A DNA stretch of 64,000 nt from Eledone cirrhosa (lineage: Eukaryota), in contig OZ024740.1 in the NCBI GenBank assembly GCA_964016885.1, positions 165,602,001-165,666,000 of the forward strand, written 5' to 3'. The position numbers were made by a program, and so were the translations under genes. Of this stretch, positions 2,291-59,396 are shown piece after piece; position 1 is the first letter of the stretch; each line of letters begins with the position of its first letter. The notes under the pieces were generated by a model that was not told the DNA's origin, did not search any database, and saw nothing but the letters and a program-made list of their open reading frames with translations.

Positions 2291-2372
<82 letters not shown>

Positions 2373-2637
2373 GGAAAAAAATGACACGAAATTTCATTTC
2401 CCACTCTTAGTACGGCTGTTACTTAAATATAAGTATGTATACGTACATACATATATGTATACAGACATACAGTAGTATGTATATATATATACATACATGC
2501 ACACATATATATATATGTACGTATGGATTCACCGAACATTTATTATAATGCTCGGTGTGTTTGTAAACGAACATCCTGTATTAAGCCGTAGTGTCTAGCA
2601 ACCATCGTTGCTCGTTTGTTCAACACTGACAAAGGAA

Positions 2638-2678
2638 CACTGTACTAGTTTCAAGCTTATTAGCTATCGTCAACAACG
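2638..2678 (-). ncRNA. Type I hammerhead ribozyme, C3U variant
   Basis: Minus strand cgttg TTGACGA tagct aata agct t GAAA ctag TA cagtg. Confidence 0.7.
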
Positions 2679-2835
2679 TATACCTTCCTGCCAGCGTTTC
2701 ATTTTTTTCCGTTTATCGTTTTCGGTGCACCCGGCCGATTAACCCACTCGATATTCAAATTAGGCTGCTCAGCCGTTAATATGCATAAGGAAAGTATATA
2801 TTTTCAGACGTTCAATCATCTGGCAGGAAGGTATA

Positions 2836-2876
2836 CGTTGCTGACGATAGCTAATAAGCTTGAAACTAGTACAGCG
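2836..2876 (+). ncRNA. Type I hammerhead ribozyme (minimal, palindromic stem III)
   Basis: cgttg CTGACGA t agct aata agct t GAAA ctag TA cagcg. Stem I cgttg/cagcg is extended by ggaa/ttcc across a bulge. Confidence 0.88.
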
Positions 2877-3264
2877 TTCCTTTGTCAGCGTTGAACAAAC
2901 GAGCAACGATGGTTGCTAGATACTACGTCTTAATACGGGATGTTTGTTTACAAACACATCGAGCATTATAATAAATGTTCGGTGAATCCATACGTACATA
3001 TATATATGTGTGCATGTATGTATATATATATACGCACTACTGTACGTCTGTATAAATATATGTATGTACGTATACATACTTATATTTCAGTAACAGCCGT
3101 ACTAAGAGTGTGAAATGAAATTTCGTTTCATTATTTTCCGTTTATCGTTTTCGGTGCACCCGGCCGATTAACCCATTCGATATCCAAATTAGGCTGCTCA
3201 GCCGTTAATATGGATAAGGAAAGTATATACTTTCGGACGTTCAATCATCTGGCAGGAACGTATA

Positions 3265-3305
3265 CGTTGCTGACGATAGCTAATAAGCTTGAAACTAGTA
3301 CAGCG
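3265..3305 (+). ncRNA. Type I hammerhead ribozyme, second tandem copy
   Basis: Same sequence as 2836-2876. Confidence 0.88.
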
Positions 3306-3513
3306 TTCCTTTGTCAGTGTTGAACAAACGAGTAACGATGGTTGCTAGACTCTACTGCTTAATACGGGATGTTTGTTTACAAACACACCGAGCATTATAA
3401 TAAATGATCGGTAAATCCATACGTACATATATATATGTGTGCATGTATGTATATATATATATACATACTAATGTACGTCTGTATACATATATGTATGTAC
3501 GTATACATACATA

Positions 3514-3573
<60 letters not shown>

Positions 3574-4291: not shown

Positions 4292-4390
4292 GTAGGTCCC
4301 GGGTTGAGTCGGGGATAACCACAGTAAGTAAGGTACTCAATACATGGCAGAGTAAATATTTTTTATTTTATAGAAGGAGCTTCTACAGCG
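4291..4390 (-). mobile_element. 3' tail of HHR element family C
   Basis: Homologous to 52717-52820 and 59648-59700 (TAACCACAGTAAG..GGTACTCAATACAT). Abuts (TA)n. Confidence 0.7.
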
Positions 4391-4627
4391 ACGTACTCTT
4401 GTTTTGTTTCATTTACGATGGAAAGAGATGATGATATTAAGCATCATTTCTTGAACACCTAACATTCTAAGGACAATCCAGAGAGCATCTCTAGAAACCG
4501 TGTCAAATGCTTGTGGGAGAACAACAAAAAGGACAAAGAGCTCCTTATCGTGATGTACATTTTCCTGCAGTTGCCACAGACTGAAAATCAATTACACAGT
4601 GCCGCTATAAGAGCGAAAACCACACTG
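4389..4627 (-). repeat. Inverted duplication of 4702-4941
   Basis: Near-identical reverse complement of about 240 bp. Confidence 0.9.
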
Positions 4628-4654
4628 TATATATATATATATATATACAGAGTA

Positions 4655-4920
4655 TGTACATAAAATTCTTGGCAGGGCCATTTTCAGTTTTGCCCGAATC
4701 ACAGTGTGGTTTTCGCTCTCATAGCGGCACTGTGTAATTGATTTTCAGTCTGTGACAACTGCAGGGAAATGTACATCACGATAAGGAGCTCTTTGTCCTT
4801 TTTGTTGTTCTCCCACAAGCATTTGACACGGTTTCTAGAGATGCTCTCTGGATTGTCCTTAGAATGTTAGGTGTTCAAGAAATGATGCTTAATATCATCA
4901 TCTCTTTCCATCGTAAATAA
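4655..4920 (+). pseudogene. RTE-clade LINE RT fragment
   Basis: Translates (with frameshifts) to LPESQCGFR..IFSL.QLQ..FVVLPQAFDTVSRDALW.VL..LG. Confidence 0.75.
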
Positions 4921-5489
4921 AAACAAAACAAGAGTACGTCGTTGCACTACTCCTGTTTGCTTTGTATTACCCGGACATGATTTAAACAGCTTCTTAAAAT
5001 GACAAAACCACAGTGGCACTAAGGTTGTCATTTTGAGGAACAGCATGCTGCCAGCACACAGTGATATTGATGCAGTCCACTCGAGGAAGCAAGTGGGGTG
5101 GGGGTGGGGGATCCACAGAAAAGTGTCTTTACCCGATTTTCTAACCTATTATAGCAACCAACTATATCTATTTTCTTCTTCTGAGTCTTCCAACATTTCC
5201 TATGAGCAACATATATATGTGTGTATAACAACAACAATAATAATAATAATAATAATCATTATTATTATCATTATTATTATTAACACATTAAAAAGTTAAA
5301 CAAGTAATTTCTGATTTCACCCTAAACCGAGATGATCTGAAACTGAGAGATATAAATCTGTGGACACAGAAGTAAATATTTTAAAATGACGATCAAATAT
5401 TGCCTTTGGAAAACAGAAAAACATAACAGTAGCGCGTAAAGAACATCTCTTCAGATGCAGCGAAACATATGAACATCTAGAGTCGGAAA

Positions 5490-7556: not shown

Positions 7557-7880
7557 AAAGTGTTAAACAATATTCAATGATTATGTCAAAGAATGAGTTT
7601 TACAGTAGATTGGAAGCACTCAACGAAAAATAATTTTCTGGGGTTATTAATATTAAAATATAAGTATTAATAAAATAGATGTTCTTTTGATCAATTACAT
7701 TTTATTATACATATTTCGGATGTACAACAGTACGTCCTCATCAGACAAAATATAAGGATACATGACATACGCTGAGATGTTAAATGGTTAATATTTAACC
7801 ATTTAACATCTCAGGGTACATCCGAAATATGTATAATAAAATGTAATTGATCAAAAGAACATCTATTTTATTAATACTTA

Positions 7881-7885
<5 letters not shown>
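7557..7885 (-). mobile_element. (TA)n-embedded fold-back HHR element
   Basis: 7657-7725 inverted at 7816-7885; 7772-7790 inverted at 7795-7814; HHR inside. Confidence 0.75.
7704..7750 (-). ncRNA. Type I hammerhead ribozyme
   Basis: CTGATGA ggacgtac tgtt gtacatcc GAAA tatg TA; stem I weak. Confidence 0.7.
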
Positions 7886-7975
<90 letters not shown>

Positions 7976-8803: not shown

Positions 8804-8993
8804 GAAAATGTTAAGCCCCGACGGCAGGGCTCAAGCCGTATCGACGGTTATTTCTTGACCACAAATAGCCGTCGAAACGGCTTGAGCTCTGCCGTCGGCG
8901 TTTAATATTTTCTATTACCCAATTTACTACCCTAAGTATTAAGTACTCTGGTGCGTTATGGTCCATCTAGTTCTCTCCAGCGGTCTCCTTCGT
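8804..8993 (+). mobile_element. Hairpin element family D
   Basis: Arms 8804-8853/8863-8912; GAAA CGGC..GCCG TC; conserved tail ending at TA. Confidence 0.7.
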
Positions 8994-9278: not shown

Positions 9279-9772
9279 CAGATAAATCCACCAATTAATG
9301 GTAGGGTCCAAGCCATAGGAAGAACTCAATGTAAGCCGTATGTAGAATATGTCGTGAAGCTTAAAATACAAAAATTCAGCGATATAATTCATTGGAAGCA
9401 GAGTGAAAATAATACAAATAGTGAAAACAATGAAATTAAACAAAATACGGGTAATTCATAGTAAAACTCATTATTTTACGATCGTTACTAGGGGGTAGTT
9501 CTCCGTATGTTCATTCTATTAGTGATCTATGTAAAATATATTACAAATTATCAAAGTAAGAAAATATACATACGTCTTCTCATCACGCCGTCTTCAGAGA
9601 ACACGTATGTATATTTTCTTACTTTGATAATTTGTAATATATTTTGCATAGATCACTAATAGAATGAATATACGGAGAACTAACCCCCCCCCCCGAAATG
9701 ATTGTAAAATAATGAGTTTTACTACGAATTACCCGTATTTTGTTTAATTTCATTGTTTTCGCTATTTGTATT
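9279..9772 (-). mobile_element. (TA)n-embedded fold-back element
   Basis: 9410-9575 inverted at 9603-9772; minus-strand CTGAAGA in the spacer; single-copy tail 9279-9409. Confidence 0.7.
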
Positions 9773-9799
9773 ATGTATATATATATATATTTATACACG

Positions 9800-9906
<107 letters not shown>

Positions 9907-9927
9907 ATATATATATATATATATATG

Positions 9928-10084
9928 AATGAGCCAGGACTCTGACAGCTGGCCTCTTGCCGTTTCAACAGCTAGTTCAACTAGCGGTTGAAACGGCAAG
10001 AGCGTAGCCGTCGGGGTCTTGACTCATTTATATAACCATACTCTGCTACCTCAAGTATCGAGTAATCTGGTGAGTAATGGCCTA
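9928..10084 (+). mobile_element. Hairpin element family D
   Basis: Arms 9928-9977/9979-10028; GAAA CGGC..GCCG TC; same tail as 8804. Confidence 0.7.
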
Positions 10085-11298: not shown

Positions 11299-11483
11299 CA
11301 GATAGGGCGGGGTAAAACCATCTAGACTATAACCCACCAAAGTACTTGATGCTTGGGCGAGTTGAGTGACTAATATGAAAAGATTCAGGACCGCGACGAC
11401 TGAGCTCCGGCCGTTTAGACAGCTAGATCCGAACTAGCTGTTGCAACGGCCGGAGCTCAGCCATCGAGGTCCTGAATCTTTTC

Positions 11484-11487
<4 letters not shown>
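11299..11487 (-). mobile_element. Hairpin element family D
   Basis: Hairpin 11373-11487, tail 11299-11372, TA on both sides. Confidence 0.7.
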
Positions 11488-16705: not shown

Positions 16706-16764
16706 AGAGAGAAAATATTGATATAAACATTTCGAACCAGCAAGTAAGTGTAACCCACAAATAT
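16695..16764 (+). repeat. Left target-site duplication of RTE insertion
   Basis: Matches 18466-18535 with one mismatch. Confidence 0.9.
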
Positions 16765-18457
16765 CAACGAGATCACAGGGAGGAAGAAAAGGTGTTCGAG
16801 TCAGATCCAGGGAACGGGGCCCGAGGATAGGAAGAGGAAATGGCTAGACCATTTTAGGACCCTACTAGGAGTGCCACCCTCCACAGCCCAGAGCACTGGG
16901 GAGATCAGGCGGCTGTTTGAGGAACTGGATGTTGAGACAGAGCCCTTCACCAGAGAGGAGCTTCAGAGAGCCAAGAAGAAGATCAAGGAGGGCAAGGCTC
17001 ATGGAGAAGATGGAGTGGCATCAGAGGTGATGAAGAGGTGTGATTTTGATGATATCATCCTGGGGTTCTGTAACGGGGCACTGGAGAAAGGAGTTGCCCC
17101 GAATCATTGGAGGATCAGTAACATCGTCCCAGTGCCAAAGAAGGGAGATCTCTCTAACACCAACAACTACCGGGGAATCTCACTGACGTCACTTGTGGCA
17201 AAGACCCTCAACAGGATGATTCTTAACAGGATCCAGCCTGAGATGGAGAAGAAGCTCAGGGACAACCAGAACGGCTTCAGAGAGGGTAGATCAACCACCA
17301 GTCACATCCTGATGCTGAGGAGGATATTAGAGGGAGCTAGTGCAAAGTGCCTTCCTCCGGTCATGGTTTTCATTGACTTTAGGAAGGCCTTTGATTCTGT
17401 GGACCGTTACTGCCTGATGAAGATCTTACAGGCTAATGGAATCCCCAAGAGGATAGTGGACCTGATATCACTGCTCTACACCAACACCAAAGCCCAAGTC
17501 ATTACACCTGATGGGATGACAGAGTTCTTTGAGACACTGGCTGGAGTGCTCCAGGGAGATACATTGGCTCCCTACCTTTTTATCATCGTAGTGGACTATT
17601 GTATGTGCCTTGCACTGGAGAAACACCAGGACTCTGGCTTTACTGTAGCACCGGCTCAGAGCAGGAGAGTTGGGGCGAAAAAGGTATCGGATGCTGAATT
17701 TGCCCACGACATAGTTTTGCTGACAAATACAGTGAAGGAGGCAGAGGATTTGATGCGGGAGGTTGAGACTGTGTCGATGAGTGTGGGGCTGAGAATGAAT
17801 GAGACTAAAACAAAATATCTGGTAGAGAATGTTGAGAAGCCAGAGGGGATCACTAATGTAGGCGGGAAGCCGCTGGAATTGGTTGAGGACTTCCTGTATT
17901 TGGGAGCAAAGATTGGGAATACGGAGGATGATGTGGTTGAGAGGAAGAGCAAGGCCTGGGCGGCGTGCCACAGCTTGAGATCGGTGTGGAAGTTGGACCT
18001 TCATAGAGACCTGAAAATCCGCCTCTTCATTGCTGTAGTGGAGTCTGTGCTGCTGTATGGGTCTGAGACTTGGACACTGACCAAGAAACTCACTCAGATG
18101 GTGGATGGGTGCTACACGAGAATGCTGAGGATGGTTCTGAACATTAATCAGTATACACTGAGGATGAAAAACTCAGAGCTGTATGGGAGCATCCCAAAAG
18201 TCAGCTCAAAAGTGACACAGAGGAGACTGAGGTTGGCTGGACATGCTCACCGACATCCAGAGTTGACATTGCACTCAGTGCTCCTTTGGGAGCCCCTACA
18301 TGGACACACTAGAAGAGGAAGACCAAGGTTAACATATGTTGATGCTCTAAGGACAGACACTGGTCTGTTGGAGATGCAGGATATGGCAGCGATAATGAGG
18401 GACAGAGACCGCTGGAGAGAACTCGTCCATGGATCTCGGGAATTTTACCCGCCTTAG
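16763..18457 (+). CDS. RTE LINE reverse transcriptase, 5'-truncated (no APE domain); catalytic motif reads FAHD
   Basis: Frame open from the insertion edge. Motifs NYRGISLTS, QNGFREGRST, FIDFRKAFDSV, GVLQGDTLAPYLF, FAHDIVL, FLYLG, LLYGSETW, RRLRLAGH, RRGRPRLTY. Confidence 0.9.
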   Translation: MNEITGRKKRCSSQIQGTGPEDRKRKWLDHFRTLLGVPPSTAQSTGEIRRLFEELDVETEPFTREELQRAKKKIKEGKAHGEDGVASEVMKRCDFDDIILGFCNGALEKGVAPNHWRISNIVPVPKKGDLSNTNNYRGISLTSLVAKTLNRMILNRIQPEMEKKLRDNQNGFREGRSTTSHILMLRRILEGASAKCLPPVMVFIDFRKAFDSVDRYCLMKILQANGIPKRIVDLISLLYTNTKAQVITPDGMTEFFETLAGVLQGDTLAPYLFIIVVDYCMCLALEKHQDSGFTVAPAQSRRVGAKKVSDAEFAHDIVLLTNTVKEAEDLMREVETVSMSVGLRMNETKTKYLVENVEKPEGITNVGGKPLELVEDFLYLGAKIGNTEDDVVERKSKAWAACHSLRSVWKLDLHRDLKIRLFIAVVESVLLYGSETWTLTKKLTQMVDGCYTRMLRMVLNINQYTLRMKNSELYGSIPKVSSKVTQRRLRLAGHAHRHPELTLHSVLLWEPLHGHTRRGRPRLTYVDALRTDTGLLEMQDMAAIMRDRDRWRELVHGSREFYPP

Positions 18458-20855: not shown

Positions 20856-21135
20856 ATAATAATAAATGTGAAGACTAAAATTCGAAAAGGGCTCGATAAG
20901 GATAATATATATATCAAAATATATAAAACCATAGAGCAAATATTTATTGAAATAACAGATTAAAATTTAAGCAAAAAAATCGCTGCTGTCATCTTGAACG
21001 GGTTATTCTGAATTTTAGATATATATATATATATGAATGTATATATAGTGTATTTTGGAATACACTGTATGCTTAATTAAAAGCATTTCGAAAACCTTAC
21101 GCTATTTTCATTTTTCAGCAAACAAGAGGAGATAA

Positions 21136-21180
21136 AGCTGACAGAGCTCTGTTTCGTACTGATTGTTACTTATCAAAGCC
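21136..21180 (-). ncRNA. Hammerhead ribozyme, U3-A8 core
   Basis: ggct TTGATAA gtaacaatcagtac GAAA cagagctctg TC agct. Confidence 0.75.
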
Positions 21181-21457
21181 AAGTACTCCACCTGTTTGCT
21201 GAAAATCGTGAATGTTTGATTCTTATAGAATTCTAGTAATATTCAGGAACTGATTATACAGAGCGGTTGCCGGTCAAGCAGAAATTGAAAATTAGAATTG
21301 GTGCTCTGAAATAGCGAGATATATATGAATGCATATATATTGTATTTTGCAATACACTGTATGCTTAATTAAAAGCATTTCGAAGATCTTACGCTATTGT
21401 TTTAGAGTAGTGACAGTCTCACTTACTTTAAATTTTTCAGCAAACAAGGGGAGATAA

Positions 21458-21502
21458 AACTGACAAAGCTCAGTTTCGTACTGATTGGTACTTATCAAAG
21501 CC
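21458..21502 (-). ncRNA. Hammerhead ribozyme, U3-A8 core
   Basis: ggct TTGATAA gtac caatca gtac GAAA ctgagctttg TC agtt. Confidence 0.75.
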
Positions 21503-21614
21503 AAGTACTCCACCTGTTTGCTGAAAATCATGAATGTTTGATTCTTATAGAATTCTAGTAATAATCAGGAACTGATTATACAGAGCGGTTGCCGGTCAAA
21601 CAGGTGGAGTACTT

Positions 21615-21659
21615 GGCTTTGATAAGTACCAATCAGTACGAAACAGAGCTCTGTCAGTT
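21615..21659 (+). ncRNA. Hammerhead ribozyme, U3-A8 core
   Basis: ggct TTGATAA gtac caatca gtac GAAA cagagctctg TC agtt; palindromic stem III. Confidence 0.8.
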
Positions 21660-21802
21660 TTATCTCCCCTTGTTTGCTGAAAATTTAAAGTAAGTGAGAC
21701 TGTTACTACTCTAAAACAATAGCGTAAGGTCTTCGAAATGCTTTTAATTAAGCATACAGTGTATTGCAAAATACACTATATATACATTCATATATATATA
21801 CA

Positions 21803-21865
<63 letters not shown>

Positions 21866-22241: not shown

Positions 22242-22480
22242 CCAGGGAGTGTAATGCGGAGTTTCTGTAGGTTCACCCGAGTGAGCACTCGATGTTTAGG
22301 TTCACGTCTGTATCGAGGTGTAGAGCTAGACAGCGTGTAGTATAATAAATTAAAAGAAGGACGAGAGGGTACTCATTCATTACGTTAATTCGTTGGTGAT
22401 GCGAATTACGCCACCGTTCAGCTCAACGTTCGATCTGTATCGATCTAGCCCGACTCTGTAATCAACGACTCGTCGGACAT
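22242..22480 (-). mobile_element. Family A copy
   Basis: Colinear with 1813-2135. Confidence 0.7.
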
Positions 22481-22489
22481 TTTTTGGCG

Positions 22490-22720
22490 CTACGGGAGTT
22501 TCCCAAAAGTCAGATTAAAGTGACACATAGAAGATGCAGCTTATCTGGACATATTCATCGACATTTAGTGTTGAACTTTCACTCAGTGGTCCTGTGGGAG
22601 CCCCTACACGAACACACTGGAAGAGGGAGACAGTGGATGATATATGCTGATGCCCTAAAGACAGGAACTGGTCTTTTGGAGACGCGGCTCATAGCAGCGA
22701 TGATGAAGGACAGAGAACGC
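22490..22720 (+). pseudogene. Diverged RTE 3' ORF fragment
   Basis: HSVVLWEPLHEHTGRGR..YADALKT aligns to the C-terminus of the 16763 ORF. Confidence 0.8.
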
Positions 22721-22744
22721 TTGATAGAACACATCATTGATAGA

Positions 22745-23045
22745 ACACATATTTGGAAATATACTGTATGTTTAATTAAAATCATTTAGAAGACAATTCG
22801 CTATGAGTTTTAAAGTAGTGACTATGTCACTTACTTGTTCTCGGCAAAAACTACAGAGAGCGGCCGACATATAGTCTGTTTCTCGTTTGTGAGCGTTTAT
22901 CAAGACCATACACTCACTTGCCTTTGCCGAGAATTATAGGGGCTGGATTCTTGTAGAATTACAGTAATAATCAGGAGCTGATTAAACAGAGCGTTTGCCG
23001 GTCCAGCAAAAATTAGGTATTAGTATTGGTGCTCTGAAATATATA
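22745..23045 (-). mobile_element. Family F single unit (diverged) with HHR at 22862-22907
   Basis: ggtc TTGATAA acgctcacaaacga GAAA cagactatatg TC ggcc inside a TCGGCAAA/TTTGCCGA outer stem. Confidence 0.75.
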
Positions 23046-23071
23046 TTTTCATATGTATACATACATACACA

Positions 23072-23400
23072 CTGGGGTATGTTAGTAACTGCCTCAATAC
23101 AAATCTTGAGAAGCTAGGCTTGACAGGAACAGAAAGAACACAACTAGTTAGGAAATTACAAGTACAATCCATTAATGGAACAGTAAAAATATGTAAAACA
23201 TTCCAAAAATGTTGCATCTAATAACTGCATGTACAGATACAAAGCATATACACATGCACACATACAATAACATGCATGCATACATAATCTACCTAGTTAA
23301 TGTTGTGTAAATTCCAGTGAGAGAGTCTTGTGTCAATGTTAGAAACCGACTCTCTCTCTGTTGATAAAAATTGTGAAATTATAAAACTGGAAGAACACAT
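23072..23400 (+). mobile_element. R4/Dong-like RLE LINE 3' end in (CATA)n
   Basis: LGYVSNCLNTNLEKLG..INGTVKICKTF*; homologous to 44040-44432. Confidence 0.7.
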
Positions 23401-23817: not shown

Positions 23818-23862
<45 letters not shown>

Positions 23863-23870
23863 TATATTAA

Positions 23871-24411
23871 AGACGTAAAATAAGATAATTATAAAAAATT
23901 ACTTACTTACTAAAATTTCACTCCAACTAATTAGTTTCTGAAAGGGAATAAACATGGTTTCCGATTGGAACAACATTGAGAAATATCCTTTCGTCATCAG
24001 GGAGATCTGTTCTCAGCTAAGTTCCCAGGCAATGCGTGGACACAGGGAACTTATACAAAAATAATTCAGTGGATGGAAAAAAGCAAGCGAGGACTGTACA
24101 ATCATTTTTGTATAAGTTCCCTGTGTCCACGCATTGCCTGGGAACTTAGCTGAGAACAGATCTCCCTGATGCGAAACGATATTTCTCCATGTTGTTCCAA
24201 TCGGAAACCATGTTTATTCCCTTTCAGAAACTAATTAGTTGGAGTGAAATTTTAGTAACTAAGTTAATTTTTATAATTTTCTTATTTTACGTCTCTCATA
24301 TTATTTATTCTGCATCCCCTTGCATTGAACCACAAAGTTACTAAGCCAAAACCTATATATTTGCTAGCATAGGTATGCATCTGTGTATATATGTTGGTAG
24401 ATATACTAATT

Positions 24412-37244: not shown

Positions 37245-38822
<1,578 letters not shown>

Positions 38823-39048: not shown

Positions 39049-41094
39049 CAAAGAATTTCATATTATGTGGACCAAATTAGACCATGAATACTTTGGTCAG
39101 CCAGCGACTGAATAGTTTGGGCTTTGATTGAATTAGAAGTGATATAAAATAATCAACACTTTAGAACGAAATATCGATGAAGCAAAAATACTAACAACAA
39201 TTTGGAATCACTTTATAACAGAAATATTACAGTGAAGAAATATTTTACGAGCTCACCCATAAACAAGTCACTTCATATATTTGGTTTAGAAACTGAAAGC
39301 AAAAGTATTTACAATTTGGCGAAGCTCAATAGAGTAAAATTAATTAACATAAATATCTAATTAACAAACTTACATTCGCATACAAGTCCGCACATAGCAA
39401 CACACACATAACCAAATAGAGTGATATACACACTTTGTTCTGCATGACATATTCTTGTATCGCAATATAGTGTCCTTTAAGCAATATTTGGATCATTATA
39501 CATATACATAGCACTGAAAATTATGTTTACTTTCATTACACATCTTTATATATTTGTGCGAGTGGACTTCAAATACAGAGAAATACTCACAGACTCATAT
39601 TCAAACATAACTTGTGAACATATGTCTTATTTTACTAATACAACCATTAAATAGCCCACACTTCTATTTATTTAACAGGCGAATGCATCAATCCTAGCAA
39701 TCACTAACGTATGTTTGTTCACGCCCCGCAGCGTAGGTAGTTACCTTGACATAGAAGCACCCTATCTAGCCGCAAACAATAAGCACAAAGACGCCCCCCC
39801 CCCACACACACACACGCTCAGACATAAAGACACACATGCACACTGTACCAATACAATGTAGGTGTTATGTTGAAATCGCGTCAGACTTGTGCTAGGGTGA
39901 ATAAGACTGATATGACTTCCATAATCCTCTCCGCAAATTCAACCAATAAGCTTGTGTTGGTGATGTCCTTGGTTGGTGCAAGAATGAATTACTAATTTGT
40001 CTGAATTCGTTGAAAAAATATGTTCCATTATGACATCTTCTAAGTTTTCTCTGAGCAGCTGTTGCATTTTTCGCAGGAGCTGACATAGATTACGATACCC
40101 CAACCTTTCTAAGATGAAGAACTGGATGGTTGGTTGATGATACAGTCTTTCATTTCATGAGCTATTTCTGACTGATGGAAACTGATAAATCAGGCGAAAC
40201 GTGAACCCTTTGACGCTGTGTTCCATAAAATGAACTGAAATTGCTGGGTCGGTAGAACAGAGAAATTATAGCTGATTTATACGGACTCGTGTATACATCT
40301 TGTTATGATCACGAAATTTCGACTGTTGTACTCAGAGGACTTTTACAGCTAGCATTCGTATTTAGCATTTCGACATACTACCTACATCTTACTTTTCTTG
40401 GGTTTCTGAATGTTTATTAATTACAAAACACACGAGTGAAAGTGGAATAAGAATAGAGCCCTTATGTATCCTTCAAACATAACACATGCAGGTAAGATAT
40501 TGTGACTAAAGTAATATGAAACATTGAAAAGGAACAATGGTTATATGACATGAATACCATTGTGTTTGGGCTGAATGGAGTATGTTATAAAAGATTGGGC
40601 CAGCCAAGTTGCAACTTGCGAGAGCGGCATATAAATGCTTTCAATACCAGGCTACAGTTAGTCTGTAACACTGATGATCGTCATAGGTGCAAAGATTATG
40701 CATTACTGGAGCAAGTTCTTGTTGCATACAAGTCATCATTTCAGAATATTCATGGTGGAATAATCATTTGTTGAGAATTCTTGGTGCACGCATCAACAAC
40801 AAGCTATAACTGATTGTATTTCACGAAGAATGTGAAATAAGATAACAGTGGTGTGAATTGAAAGAAACACGGATAACCAGAATACACCAACGGATCTGAT
40901 AAGTGGAAAGTGCAGATAGACGCCAAGAACGCGTTACCCGAAGCCATATAGCAATCAGGAAACAATACATGGATCTGTGGCTTCATACTACTTGCAAAAT
41001 AAACGTTCCTAGTTTTCCAGTTGACGGTACTGGCTGAAATCTATCAAAGTATATACATACACACACACATATACATATATATACGTATATATAC

Positions 41095-41150
<56 letters not shown>

Positions 41151-41530
41151 CGGCGATGAATTAGTTTTGCGAGGTTTTTTATATGAAATCGTGTGTCGAA
41201 ACCAATATTGTTATACTTGGGGACCGCATAAATTTGATTACCGATATAAAAAACACAAGCGAAAAGCGAGAACCAACCAAACAGTGAGTGTGTTCTGTTA
41301 TTAATTCTGGCAATATTACACAAATATGACCCTCCACAAGTATAACAATATATATATATATATATATAAAATTAGAATTGGAGCTCTGAAATAGCAATAT
41401 ATATGGATGTATATATAATGTATTTTGCAATACACTTTATGCTTAATTAAAAGCATTTTGAAGACCGTAAGCTATTGTTTTAAAGTAGTGACAAATTCAC
41501 TCACTTTGATCTCAGCAAACAGGGGAGATA

Positions 41531-41574
41531 AGCCGACATGACATGTTTCGCTTTGGTTGAAGCTTATCAAGGCC
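41531..41574 (-). ncRNA. Hammerhead ribozyme, U3-A8 core
   Basis: ggcc TTGATAA gctt caacca aagc GAAA catgtcatg TC ggct. Confidence 0.82.
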
Positions 41575-41846
41575 AACTACCCCACCTGTCTACTGAGATC
41601 AATGATGTTATATTCTTATAGAAATCTAGTAAATAATCAGGAGCTGATTATGCAGAGCGGTTGTTGGTCAGGCAGAAATTAAAAATTAGAATTGGAGCTC
41701 TGAAATAGCAATATATATATGGATGCATATACAATGTATTTTGCAATACACTTTATGCTTAATTAAAAGCATTTTGAAGACCGTAAGCTATTGTTTTAAA
41801 GTAGTGACAAATTCACTCACTTTGATCTCAGCAAACAGGGGAGATA

Positions 41847-41890
41847 AGCCGACATGACATGTTTCGCTTTGGTTGAAGCTTATCAAGGCC
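41847..41890 (-). ncRNA. Hammerhead ribozyme, U3-A8 core
   Basis: Identical tandem copy. Confidence 0.82.
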
Positions 41891-42286
41891 AACTAGCCCA
41901 CCTGTCTACTGAGATCAATGATGTTATATTCTTATAGAAATCTAGTAAATAATCAGGAGCTGATTATGCAGAGCGGTTGTTGGTCAGGCAGAAATTAAAA
42001 ATTAGAATTGGAACTCTGAAATAGCAATATATATATGGATGTATATATAATGTATTTTGCAATACACTTTATGCTTACGGTCTTCAAAATGCTTTTAATT
42101 AAGCATAAAGTGTATTGCAAAATACATTATATATACATCCATATATATATTGCTATTTCAGAGCTCCAATTCTAATTTTTAATTTCTGCCTGACCAACAA
42201 CCGCTCTGCATAATCAGCTCCTGATTATTTACTAGATTTCTATAAGAATATAACATCATTGATCTCAGTAGACAGGTGGGGTAGTT

Positions 42287-42330
42287 GGCCTTGATAAGCT
42301 TCAACCAAAGCGAAACATGTCATGTCGGCT
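42287..42330 (+). ncRNA. Hammerhead ribozyme, U3-A8 core
   Basis: Identical copy on the inverted arm. Confidence 0.82.
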
Positions 42331-42602
42331 TATCTCCCCTGTTTGCTGAGATCAAAGTGAGTGAATTTGTCACTACTTTAAAACAATAGCTTACGGTCTT
42401 CAAAATGCTTTTAATTAAGCATAAAGTGTATTGCAAAATACATTGTATATGCATCCATATATATATTGCTATTTCAGAGCTCCAATTCTAATTTTTAATT
42501 TCTGCCTGACCAACAACCGCTCTGCATAATCAGCTCCTGATTATTTACTAGATTTCTATAAGAATATAACATCATTGATCTCAGTAGACAGGTGGGGTAG
42601 TT

Positions 42603-42646
42603 GGCCTTGATAAGCTTCAACCAAAGCGAAACATGTCATGTCGGCT
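42603..42646 (+). ncRNA. Hammerhead ribozyme, U3-A8 core
   Basis: Identical copy on the inverted arm. Confidence 0.82.
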
Positions 42647-43065
42647 TATCTCCCCTGTTTGCTGAGATCAAAGTGAGTGAATTTGTCACTACTTTAAAAC
42701 AATAGCTTACGGTCTTCAAAATGCTTTTAATTAAGCATAAAGTGTATTTCAAAATACATTATATATACATATATATATAATTGTTGTGGGATGCTTAAAG
42801 TGTCCGTAAGCGGTAGGCCGTTTGAGCACTCGTTGCTCTTACAGAGCATAAGAAACGGACAATATAATTTATTAGACATATTACAATCATTTCTCTGGCG
42901 ACCAGCTCGAGGCACGATCGATGCAACGATCGAACCTGACTCTGAAATCGCAAGATCCTCAGATACGTCTCGATTATATTGGGAGAAGAGGCTGGCTCTA
43001 CTATTTTGCGTTATTGTTTTCTTAGTTATTCGTTACACATACATACACACACACATACATACATA

Positions 43066-43837: not shown

Positions 43838-44432
43838 TATAAAATGCAAACATAACAGACCCGATATAATGATATGGGACAGAGGAAAGAAGGCATGCGC
43901 AGTAGTGGAAGTTAGCCACCCAGCAGATGCCAATATATTATTAAAAATCAGTGAAAAGGAGAATATCTATGCAGAACTAATGAGAAATCTGCAGATACTC
44001 CACCCTGGCTATACCTTCAGATTTATACCTGTGATTATGGGTATACTGGGATATGTTAGTAACTGCTTCAATATAAATCTTGAGAAGCTAGGCTTCACAG
44101 AAACGGAAAGAACATGAGTAGTTAGGAAATCACAATTACAATCTATTAATGGAACAGTAAAACTTATGTAAAACATTCCAAAGCTTCTGCATCTAATAAC
44201 TGCATATACACATATACAGATACAAAGCGTATGCACATGCACACATACAACTCAAAGCATACACATCCACACATGCAATAACATCCATCTCTGCACACAC
44301 ATGCATGCAGACATGCATACATATCTACCTGCTAGATGTTTAAATTCCAATGAGAGAGTCTTATATCTATGTTAGAAACCGACTCTCTTTCTATTGGTAA
44401 CAATTTATAAAATTATAAAACCAGAAGAACAC
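43838..44432 (+). mobile_element. R4/Dong-like LINE 3' end with restriction-like endonuclease, in (CATA)n
   Basis: KCKHNRPDIMIWD..VVEVSHPAD..EK..IY..L..IPVIMGILG (PD..E motif) plus 3' UTR. Confidence 0.75.
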
Positions 44433-45458: not shown

Positions 45459-46072
45459 TCCCGGAGATGGAAAGCACCCCGTGATTGGGCCTTGTTAGCA
45501 AATGACATCAGCTTGAATCTTCTGGGTGTTGCGAACGGATATGAGTCTTGTGGGTGTTGCCAATGGATACGCCTTTAAGTGGCTTACTCAGTTGTCAGTT
45601 GTGCAACTCCCAATAAAGCTCATTATGCACTTTAGGCCGCTAGCTGACCTGCATTGTTTGACATTTGTTCTGCATATGTATGTTGTTTGGAATGATAAAT
45701 ATAGAAACATGCTCTTTTGTATAACTCAGCTGCCCACATGATGTGAATGTGGTAAGAAAAATGCAAGAGAAGGAAGACATCTATAGACCATAGATGAGGA
45801 GTTTGCAGCTCCAGTATCCACAATTTACATTCAGCTTCATACCCGTTATAATTGGAGTTACAGGTTATAAACGAATCCACCTGGACCAAAGTATAACTGA
45901 ATTTGGATTTGTGGAGAAAAAACGTAGCTTCTTAATTTGTAAGCTATAAATAGCCACGTCAGCTAGAACCTTACGATTCAAAGGGTGAATGCTTACACGA
46001 GACGACGACAGTTTCTCTATGCCTTTGTCCCCGTGGAGGTGGCCGATGAAAATAAACATAAAAGAGAATAAA

Positions 46073-53241: not shown

Positions 53242-53246
<5 letters not shown>

Positions 53247-53550
53247 GATTGGTGCTCTGAAATAGCGATGTATACATGAATGTATGTATAGTATATTTGG
53301 CAATATACCGTATGTTTAATTAAAAACATTTTGAAGACCATACGCTATCGGTTTTAAAGTAGTGATATGTCACTAACTTCTTTTCGGCGAAAGAAGGGAG
53401 AGAAGCTAACAGTCAGTTTCACGCTGTTGGCGATCATCAGAGCCACGCACTCCCCGCTTTCGCCGAAAATTATAGAAGCTGGATTCTTATAGAATTCCAG
53501 TGATAATGAGGAGCTGATTATACAGAGCGATTGCCGGTCCAGCAAAAGGT
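53242..53550 (-). mobile_element. Family F single unit
   Basis: Colinear with the 316/322-bp units; (TA)n on both sides. Confidence 0.8.
53404..53444 (-). ncRNA. Hammerhead ribozyme, canonical C3-G8 core
   Basis: ggct CTGATGA t cgc caaca gcg t GAAA ctgactg TT agct, inside outer stem TTTTCGGCGAAAG/CTTTCGCCGAAAA. Confidence 0.8.
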
Positions 53551-53608: not shown

Positions 53609-53894
53609 TGTATATATATATATTTGTGAGTGTGTGTAGAGTGTAGGTGGGGGGGGGGGGGTGAAATCCGTTGATGAAATATCAAGGAAAACATTGCTCT
53701 AATCAGTTGCAAGAGAGCTTATTTAGTATAAATAAAGTTTCATACACTTAACATGTATGTGCTACCACTGGTTTCGACTTCAGCCATGGCCACCACTGTA
53801 TATTGGAGAAGACACTTTTAAACTGGACCTCGAGAGCAATAGTAGCGTATACATGTTAAGTGTACGAAACTTTGTTTATACCATGTTATTGTAT

Positions 53895-58163: not shown

Positions 58164-59396
58164 TACAAAGTTTGGCCGAAAAGTTCCTAGGTTGACCAAG
58201 ATTCTCTCATGGAATGTGACCAAATGAGGTTTATTTTTCAACATAGACCCCCTTGCGGTCCATACATTTCTTCCAGCAGTGTTACAGTGCTTGGATCCCA
58301 TTGGCGAAAAAGCTTTCATCCCATTTGTCAAAAGAGAAGAAATGACGTCATCATCACTGTAATACAGGTTCCTAGTCAAGTGTTTTTTTTTATATTCATA
58401 TTGGAGATCAGATGAGAGTCTGATGAGGCGAAATCAAGAGAATATGGGGGGGGGGGTGATAAAGCCACAGTCACATACAGCAGCCATTGACACCAAGGAT
58501 TGCGTGCTGGAGCATTGTCCTGGTGAAATAAGACTACCTTCGTCAGATTTGCTGGGCGTTTGATCTTGACAGCCTTTCGTCTCAGCAAGCTGGCATAGTA
58601 CTTTCCACTGATGGTATGATCCTTTTGAAGATAGTCAACAAACACTATCTTTTGCATCTCCAGAAACTGAGACTATCACCTTCCCTGCAGATGAAACGAT
58701 TTTGGCCTTCTTCGGAGCATGTGGGGACGGGTGTTTCCACTTTGTCTCTTTGTTTCTGGCTCAAAGTGATCAACCCAGCACTCATCTTGGGTTAGGAAAC
58801 GTTCAAGGACACTAGCTGGATCAGACTCAAACATGTTAGATCTTCCTGTGATGTGATCAGCCTGGTGCACATTTGATCATGTGTCAGAACGTGGCACCAA
58901 CCGATCAGAAACCTTCGTCATGCCAAGTTCATTGTGCAGAATATTCTTAACACTCTCACGGGATAGGCTATTTGATCTATTGTCAATCGCTTGCACCCAT
59001 CTCAATATGCTGAACATGATTAATTTGTTTCCTCGGTGGTGGCAGTTGCAGATGTTGGGTCATCTTCAAGACTCTCCCTTTCCCTACAAAATGCAGTTGC
59101 CAACGTTTCACTGTTGATAAAGCTGGAGCGTCATCCTCTATTAGAGCAACCATGTCAACATGAATGTCGTTGGGGGCTGAAGGTACCTGATCACGCCACG
59201 ATGCCGAATGTTGTCCATTTTCAAGAGAAGTCGCTACCAGTTACTTTTAAAGTTTTCTTTGAACACACAAATGACAGATTAGCTGCAATGAAACAATTCA
59301 GTTATTATTATGATTTGAAATTGATGCATGTAAAATTTCACAGCTCTTGCATCACCCCTTAGTAGGCAGCCTATGAAGTTTCAGCCCACCCTAGTA
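58164..59396 (-). mobile_element. Decayed mariner (DD34D) transposon
   Basis: Imperfect ~33-bp TIRs with terminal TA; frameshifted FLTQDECWVDHFEPETKRQS, FHQDNAPA, PPYSLDFASSD. Confidence 0.88.

Follow-up and report, generated by a model that had tools for sequence, protein, structure and literature searches.

A mirror-image repeat of 1.4 kb, situated between two (TA)n runs at 41368-42770 of the window (the whole 64-kb stretch of Eledone cirrhosa DNA analysed here), consists of two head-to-head arrays of 316-nt units that carry a predicted hammerhead ribozyme. This locus, hereafter 41k, represents a known class of element with a known footprint, here in a two-armed form with several units, and its parts and layout have each been described before: it has the sequence features of a non-LTR retrozyme together with those of a Penelope-like insertion. 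The reading that we prefer, and to which we would assign roughly an even chance, is that a non-LTR retrozyme was moved into (TA)n by a Penelope-type reverse transcriptase (RT)/endonuclease, and that two cDNAs made from one multi-unit RNA were joined at a GCTTA microhomology. The insert itself is likely a passive footprint of such an event. The features of the locus and of its relatives in the window are listed below, with the strand in brackets.

41348-41367 (no strand): (TA)n run on the left, within the likely target microsatellite, read from the sequence
41368-42077 (-): left arm, 2.25 units of 316 bp, ribozyme strand outward
41368-41406 (-): one-sided 39-nt "tail", unit sequence lacking a mirror in the right arm, from the arm alignment
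41507-41601 (-): type I hammerhead of the outer left unit, U3-A8 core, predicted cut at 41535
41726-41732 (-): variant of the middle left unit at two bases, both A>G on the ribozyme strand
41823-41917 (-): type I hammerhead of the inner left unit, one private change (41896) outside the scored helices
42073-42077 (no strand): GCTTA microhomology common to both arms, the head-to-head junction
42073-42770 (+): right arm, 316-bp units in 2.2 copies, ribozyme strand outward; the end lies at the TA-rich run of the unit itself
42078-42099 (+): 22-nt unpaired spacer, continuing the unit of the right arm
42260-42354 (+): type I hammerhead of the inner right unit, predicted cut after 42326
42445-42451 (+): mirror image, in the middle right unit, of the two-base variant
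42576-42670 (+): type I hammerhead of the outer right unit; the cut predicted after 42642 lies 316 nt from that of the inner unit
42771-42779 (no strand): (TA)n run on the right, within the likely target microsatellite, read from the sequence
21021-21803 (no strand): older family copy (21k), about 80% identical, a head-to-head palindrome beside (TA)n, without a tail
22750-23067 (-): old monomer of the 316-nt family (22.8k)
53243-53547 (-): old monomer of the 316-nt family between TA runs, with the canonical C3-G8 core (53k)

The original prediction of a palindrome of tandem 316-bp hammerhead units with mirrored arms is borne out by Tandem Repeats Finder, which reports two 316-nt arrays of 2.3 copies each (41368-42077 and 42073-42783), and by the pairing of 41368-42077 with 42073-42770, which yields 676 matches and 3 mismatches (41428/42749, 41896/42281 and 42013/42164) in 679 aligned bases. 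Two gap columns lie at the outer end. The strand switch expected near 42075 at GCTTA lies at 42073-42077; the start had been placed at 41345, but 41348-41367 is (TA)n target, and the element begins at 41368. The tail at 41368-41406 and the published Penelope-like footprint had also been missed. The tail would measure about 30 nt if the right end is taken to have read through the unit's own TA run, and the family monomer at 53243 ends no more than 3 nt from the tail's end point. The flanks reach a mirror score of 21, which 20 of 200 shuffles also reach, so the mirror ends with the element and the flanks are unrelated; inside (TA)n, a target-site duplication cannot be read. At 99.6% identity (0.44% divergence), the arms are the least diverged among 12 local palindromes compared in the window, the arms of the other 11 being at least 2% apart. 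The insert is therefore young, as had been claimed, though not evidently brand new, as it carries three substitutions and one TA slip, some of which are possibly copying errors.

The four hammerhead motifs are of type I, have a U3-A8 core (41570 and 41886 on the minus strand, 42291 and 42607 on the plus strand) and all point outward. The type I order of core boxes and the three helices were found in all full units; the predicted helices comprise a 17-bp distal extension of stem I, a 4-bp stem II and a 4-5-bp stem III with a near-palindromic loop, and the predicted cut site is GUC. The fold of 42260-42354 is more stable than that of shuffled sequences (z -6.97, none of 200 shuffles as good), and a motif scan gave 12 matches in the window against 3 in 30 shuffles taken together. 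The Rfam model HH9 matches all four motifs with E-values of 3e-4 to 2e-3 and 27.6 or 25.2 bits against a gathering score of 52; HH9 being one curated subfamily, a score below the gathering value bars membership of that Rfam family only. Nothing in the 64-kb window reaches an Rfam gathering score, and miRNA matches in the palindrome, which fall far below it, were set aside as reflections of the palindrome itself.

Covariation among the copies lends further support. Across eight motif copies (six distinct), 92.9% of the cells pair, compared with 34-48% in slid controls. Both sides have changed in 15 of 31 pairs among the six distinct motif rows, a small set of related rows scored on a structure drawn on the 41k copy. 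The core pair 3-8 is U-A in five of the six distinct rows and C-G in one, and is thus Watson-Crick throughout; the C3-G8 of the 53k copy is a compensatory core change. The covariation supports the hammerhead fold, short of proof, and self-cleavage is predicted. The stem III sequences can pair between copies (-10.7 kcal/mol at 41k and -20.3 kcal/mol at 21k), so that a dimeric hammerhead form may occur, although it is not required.

In each arm, two full type I motifs lie 316 nt apart, which agrees with the tandem units of 150-450 bp of the retrozyme class. The arms have no coding capacity, the longest stop-free frames wholly inside them being 55 codons. The family is dispersed and multi-copy: four loci are present in the window (41k, 21k, 22.8k and 53k), and one sequencing run contains 323 contig pieces at least 95% identical over a 96-nt stretch. 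Penelope-like hallmarks are likewise present, namely a head-to-head inverted 5'-truncated copy, a one-sided tail of 30-40 nt and a (TA)n target. The insert is not an autonomous Penelope-like element, as it has no ORF with RT plus GIY-YIG. Among 150 frames of the window, none matched a GIY-YIG family, and the only RT match, the ORF at 16754, is unrelated to the insert. A GIY-YIG-like appearance of 40520-40771 was not confirmed on follow-up.

Tandem type I hammerhead units have been described as non-LTR retrozymes (PMC7229834, in the part available), and a preprint, likewise available in part, argues for non-LTR retrozymes being non-autonomous Penelope derivatives (bioRxiv 10.64898/2026.07.22.740005). 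Movement through circles has been proposed for retrozymes in the accessible portions of PMC4209133 and PMC7229834. The metazoan non-LTR retrozymes of PMC7229834 form head-to-tail arrays, and the word "inverted" occurs 0 times in its available text, whereas 41k consists of two arrays placed head to head plus a tail. Linear and circular monomer RNAs belong to the description of retrozymes; at 41k, cleavage is a prediction from sequence. In mainly open papers, no description of palindromic multi-unit retrozyme arrays was found; the supplements of bioRxiv 10.64898/2026.07.22.740005 may list some.

The second body of comparison is provided by endonuclease-positive Penelope-like insertions of the pLTR-plus-tail type, as described in the available parts of PMC3846280, PMC8557442 and PMC11167929. 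With these, 41k shares the head-to-head inverted 5'-truncated copy, the short junction overlap, the one-sided 30-40-nt tail, the (TA)n target and a hammerhead in the repeat; it differs in having no RT/endonuclease ORF, in that the entire insert is a mirror, in having more than two units per arm and in that the parent element was not found. According to the accessible text of PMC8557442, Penelope-like elements occur as inverted 5'-truncated copies with an optional 30-40-nt tail at (TA)n targets, and the origin of the inverted copies and tails is stated as open. Head-to-head Penelope junctions with short overlaps are interpreted as self-priming in the consulted part of PMC3846280. The portion of PMC11167929 at hand reports a purified Penelope-like protein that, on AT-rich DNA, cleaves both strands and extends them, starting at two RNA sites, the distance between which equals the tail. 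In the Schistosoma Penelope-like hammerheads, U3-A8 replaces C3-G8, as at 41k, and motif pairs 100-700 bp apart on opposite strands have been noted; the Schistosoma motifs are mostly single and minimal, whereas those at 41k have a stem III of 4-5 bp and a 17-bp extension of stem I (PMC4209133, in the part available).

The arms agree in length within 27 nt and both show the unit order A-G-A from the outside in. As had been predicted, the two-base variant recurs in mirror image (41726/41732 on the left, 42451/42445 on the right), and the common allele stands at the four remaining positions, two in each arm; the variant is not fully private, since one of the two changes is also found in the inner unit of the 21k copy. 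Similar length, equal order and 99.6% identity support the derivation of both arms from one template. The mirrored variant is a sign of this shared template and is silent on which arm came first. A monomer circle copied repeatedly would give identical units, and the A-G-A order thus argues against such a template here; the sequence argues for a mixed linear multimer or a dimer circle, unless later conversion mirrored the variant. The locus thus carries an internal marker, pointing to one template for both arms and to a template other than a uniform monomer circle.

The exception just named belongs to a broader explanation, which we regard as very unlikely, whereby a tandem insertion became palindromic later through a fold-back during DNA-level replication or repair, or gene conversion from one arm to the other mirrored the variant. 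A short inverted repeat of 5 nt with a 22-nt loop is a usual fold-back substrate, and such a structure is present at the centre; the fact that the family carries one of the two variant bases as a standing allele also fits this explanation. It is opposed by the mirror stopping at the element ends, with the flanks excluded, and by the identical polarity of all four hammerhead palindromes in the window, while conversion would have left three mismatches unconverted.

The original prediction had the right arm copied from the left by fold-back synthesis. The variant is symmetric, the spacer belongs to the right arm and the left tail has no partner, and the claim is not sustained. Read on the bottom strand, the right arm terminates with GCTTA's complement and would be able to fold back across 22 nt; as the 22-nt loop continues the right arm, plain fold-back would run from right to left. 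The left arm, however, is 39 nt longer on the outside, and a copy cannot outrun its template, so that fold-back from right to left needs a later loss of the tail. Conversely, the spacer has the orientation of the right arm, so that left-to-right fold-back calls for a subsequent flip of the spacer. In either direction, a simple fold-back would hence require one extra event.

The right-to-left version is fairly unlikely. With the same element and enzyme, a single right-arm cDNA would have folded back through a 5-bp stem with a 22-nt loop and served as template for the left arm; the tail, present on both ends at first, would then have been lost from the right through endonuclease trimming or deletion between TA runs. 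In favour, the loop is right-arm sequence whose end coincides exactly with the 5-nt complement, equal arm length comes free, the right end lies in TA-rich microhomology, and self-priming has been put forward for Penelope palindromes in the available part of PMC3846280. The observed tip is among the 19 of 316 unit positions that offer a 5-nt fold-back within 30 nt, and in this respect suits fold-back rather than the joining of two cDNAs. The version must nevertheless invoke the second event that removes 39 nt on one side, the DNA fold predicted for the tip prefers another hairpin (-3.6 kcal/mol) that holds GCTTA, and the junction of the palindrome at 2.4k, inspected by eye, has no overlap. In the opposite version, which we consider quite unlikely, a left cDNA with its tail folded back and was copied into the right arm, whose synthesis halted at the unit's TA run when it annealed to the target; a crossover between the arms later flipped the spacer. 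One step thereby accounts for both the tail and the right end, and at 21k it is the long arm that carries the loop, with the short arm terminating at the first TA run; at 41k the spacer is wrongly oriented, which demands an extra inversion in a young insert.

Two cDNAs on one RNA would need neither event, provided that both stop near the same template end. Under this preferred reading, an element elsewhere would yield a multi-unit RNA of unit order A-G-A (linear or a dimer circle), and the enzyme would cut both strands of (TA)n. For one cDNA the start would be the TA-rich site of the unit (42770, the right end); the other would begin 39 nt further 3' (41368, the left end), and the use of two start sites would leave the tail. 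Both would then run for about 700 nt and stop near the same point owing to the shared template, after which their 3' ends would anneal over 5 nt and each be filled in. Two independent stops would fall within 27 nt with a chance of about 7%, so a shared template end is needed; the nearest predicted ribozyme cut lies 62 nt from the centre, not at it. LINE-1 twin priming similarly uses two primers from one cut, one RNA and a microhomology join. The cDNAs of LINE-1 twin priming cover different parts of the RNA, whereas those of 41k would cover the same part, which gives a palindrome.

Several observations favour the two-primer reading. The tail sits on the loop-free arm, where plain fold-back could not template it; the arms have equal unit order and 99.6% identity; the ribozyme fold shows covariation; and the footprint corresponds to that published for Penelope-like elements in the available parts of PMC11167929, PMC3846280 and PMC8557442. 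The ribozyme strand points outward in all four hammerhead-bearing palindromes of the window (2.4k, 7.7k, 21k and 41k), which represent three unrelated unit sequences. Reads of two other individuals end in a TA run at the same unit position (9 in X21 and 6 in X23), while 12 X22 reads continue there as a normal unit. Among the contig and read rows listed, at least nine left-arm-into-right-arm joints occur at other positions (90% likeness, short sides, each weak singly), as expected from other head-to-head copies of the family. Against the two-primer reading, an autonomous Penelope-like partner was not found among the 150 frames of the window or in the accessible supplement of PMC8557442, in which five exact unit motifs had 0 matches. 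One locus cannot settle the Penelope mechanism; 41k shows which features to count across the family.

The older palindromes were tried as a test between the models and discarded. At 2.4k, 16 inner and 7 outer sites were counted, most of them in misaligned microsatellite, and at 21k the inner and outer sites (7 and 5) are interspersed, so that neither is diagnostic. The centre of the 21k copy (21597-21600) has a 3-nt overlap and an 82-nt spacer and differs from that of 41k. The short arm of 21k carries about one private change against 5-7 per left unit, which is low, though not clearly beyond chance.

That the palindrome is an assembly or library artefact from a fold-back chimeric read appears extremely unlikely. 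The suspicion is fed by the absence of any piece bridging the centre among the 24 listed of 12,648 and the 8 listed of 323 (X1 and X2 come from a single sample, which may be the assembly source). A fold-back read mirrors everything outward, yet the flanks differ; the arms are distinguished by 3 bases and the 39-nt tail; and older palindromes of the same build, with arms 2-5% apart, are present. Three reduced-representation runs from other individuals contain 9, 4 and 6 reads to the left of the centre, for which bridging and ambiguous placement are indistinguishable. Read ends pile up at 42097 and 42171; both positions coincide with AATT, and the pile-ups were discounted as probable library cuts. 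The flanks 41150-41347 and 42780-42975 are themselves very high-copy repeats, the left one having an inverted end (41205-41223 against 41333-41351) and, by eye, hammerhead-like boxes. A joint from 41301 to 42928 in one contig each of X1 and X2 (depth 12-13) represents either a deletion allele or a link joining the two flanking repeat families.

Both strands had been expected to give long dsRNA and a dimeric hammerhead transcript. The predicted fold of read-through RNA from either strand is 96% paired (about -1200 kcal/mol), which makes long dsRNA plausible. The dimeric ribozyme is encoded, but an active one is not plausible in such RNA: the antisense arm, being transcribed first, would pair with both ribozymes and probably trap them. 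Only transcripts that start inside the insert and run outward would release 316-nt monomers. Both variant changes are A>G after U in an 8-bp AU hairpin of the printed fold, and A-to-I editing is conceivable; the case is weak, since there are only two changes, one of them a standing allele, and no A>G excess is seen among the changes in X1 (A>G 16, C>T 18, G>A 16). An unlikely but more specific scenario treats the insert as a natural, barcoded record of Penelope-type transposition: a single heterogeneous RNA of several units, either linear or a 632-nt dimer circle rather than a monomer circle, would have been reverse-transcribed twice from both ends of one cut, with two tail-defining starts, and the two A>G changes of the middle unit would be inosines fixed into DNA. 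If this were true, the Penelope mechanism could be tested genome-wide on two-armed retrozyme arrays, which would also be a self-made supply of long dsRNA acting against the family.

Other elements of the window include two further hammerhead families. At 2367-3523 (2.4k), 429-nt units of a second family stand head to head between (TA)n runs, with a minimal motif that has a 2-bp palindromic stem III (2841 and 3270), a 125-nt spacer and an extension of about 60 nt on the loop-free arm. A third family, with a canonical core at 7744 (-), is arranged head to head at 7650-7891 (7.7k), and its spacer holds a separate near-perfect palindrome of 43 nt. Eight further local palindromes (1911-2294, 4386-4944, 8804-8912, 9409-9774, 9922-10034, 11373-11487, 23854-24308 and 53726-53881) contain no standard hammerhead by motif scan; most adjoin (TA)n, and those at 9922-10034 and 11373-11487 are related to each other. 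The RT frame at 16754-18457 (+) has 567 codons (Pfam RVT_1, E 1e-29) and is LINE-like by eye; a related 3' fragment lies at 22400-22790. Fragments at 43845-44117 (+), 23071-23399 and 45794-45949, none of which has a Pfam match, are taken by us to resemble the endonuclease end of a site-specific non-LTR element. A weak match to Transposase_1 (mariner-type, E 1e-4, below the cut-off) is located at 58379-58672 (-), and a degenerate (TA)n array of 1.6 kb extends over 37246-38822.
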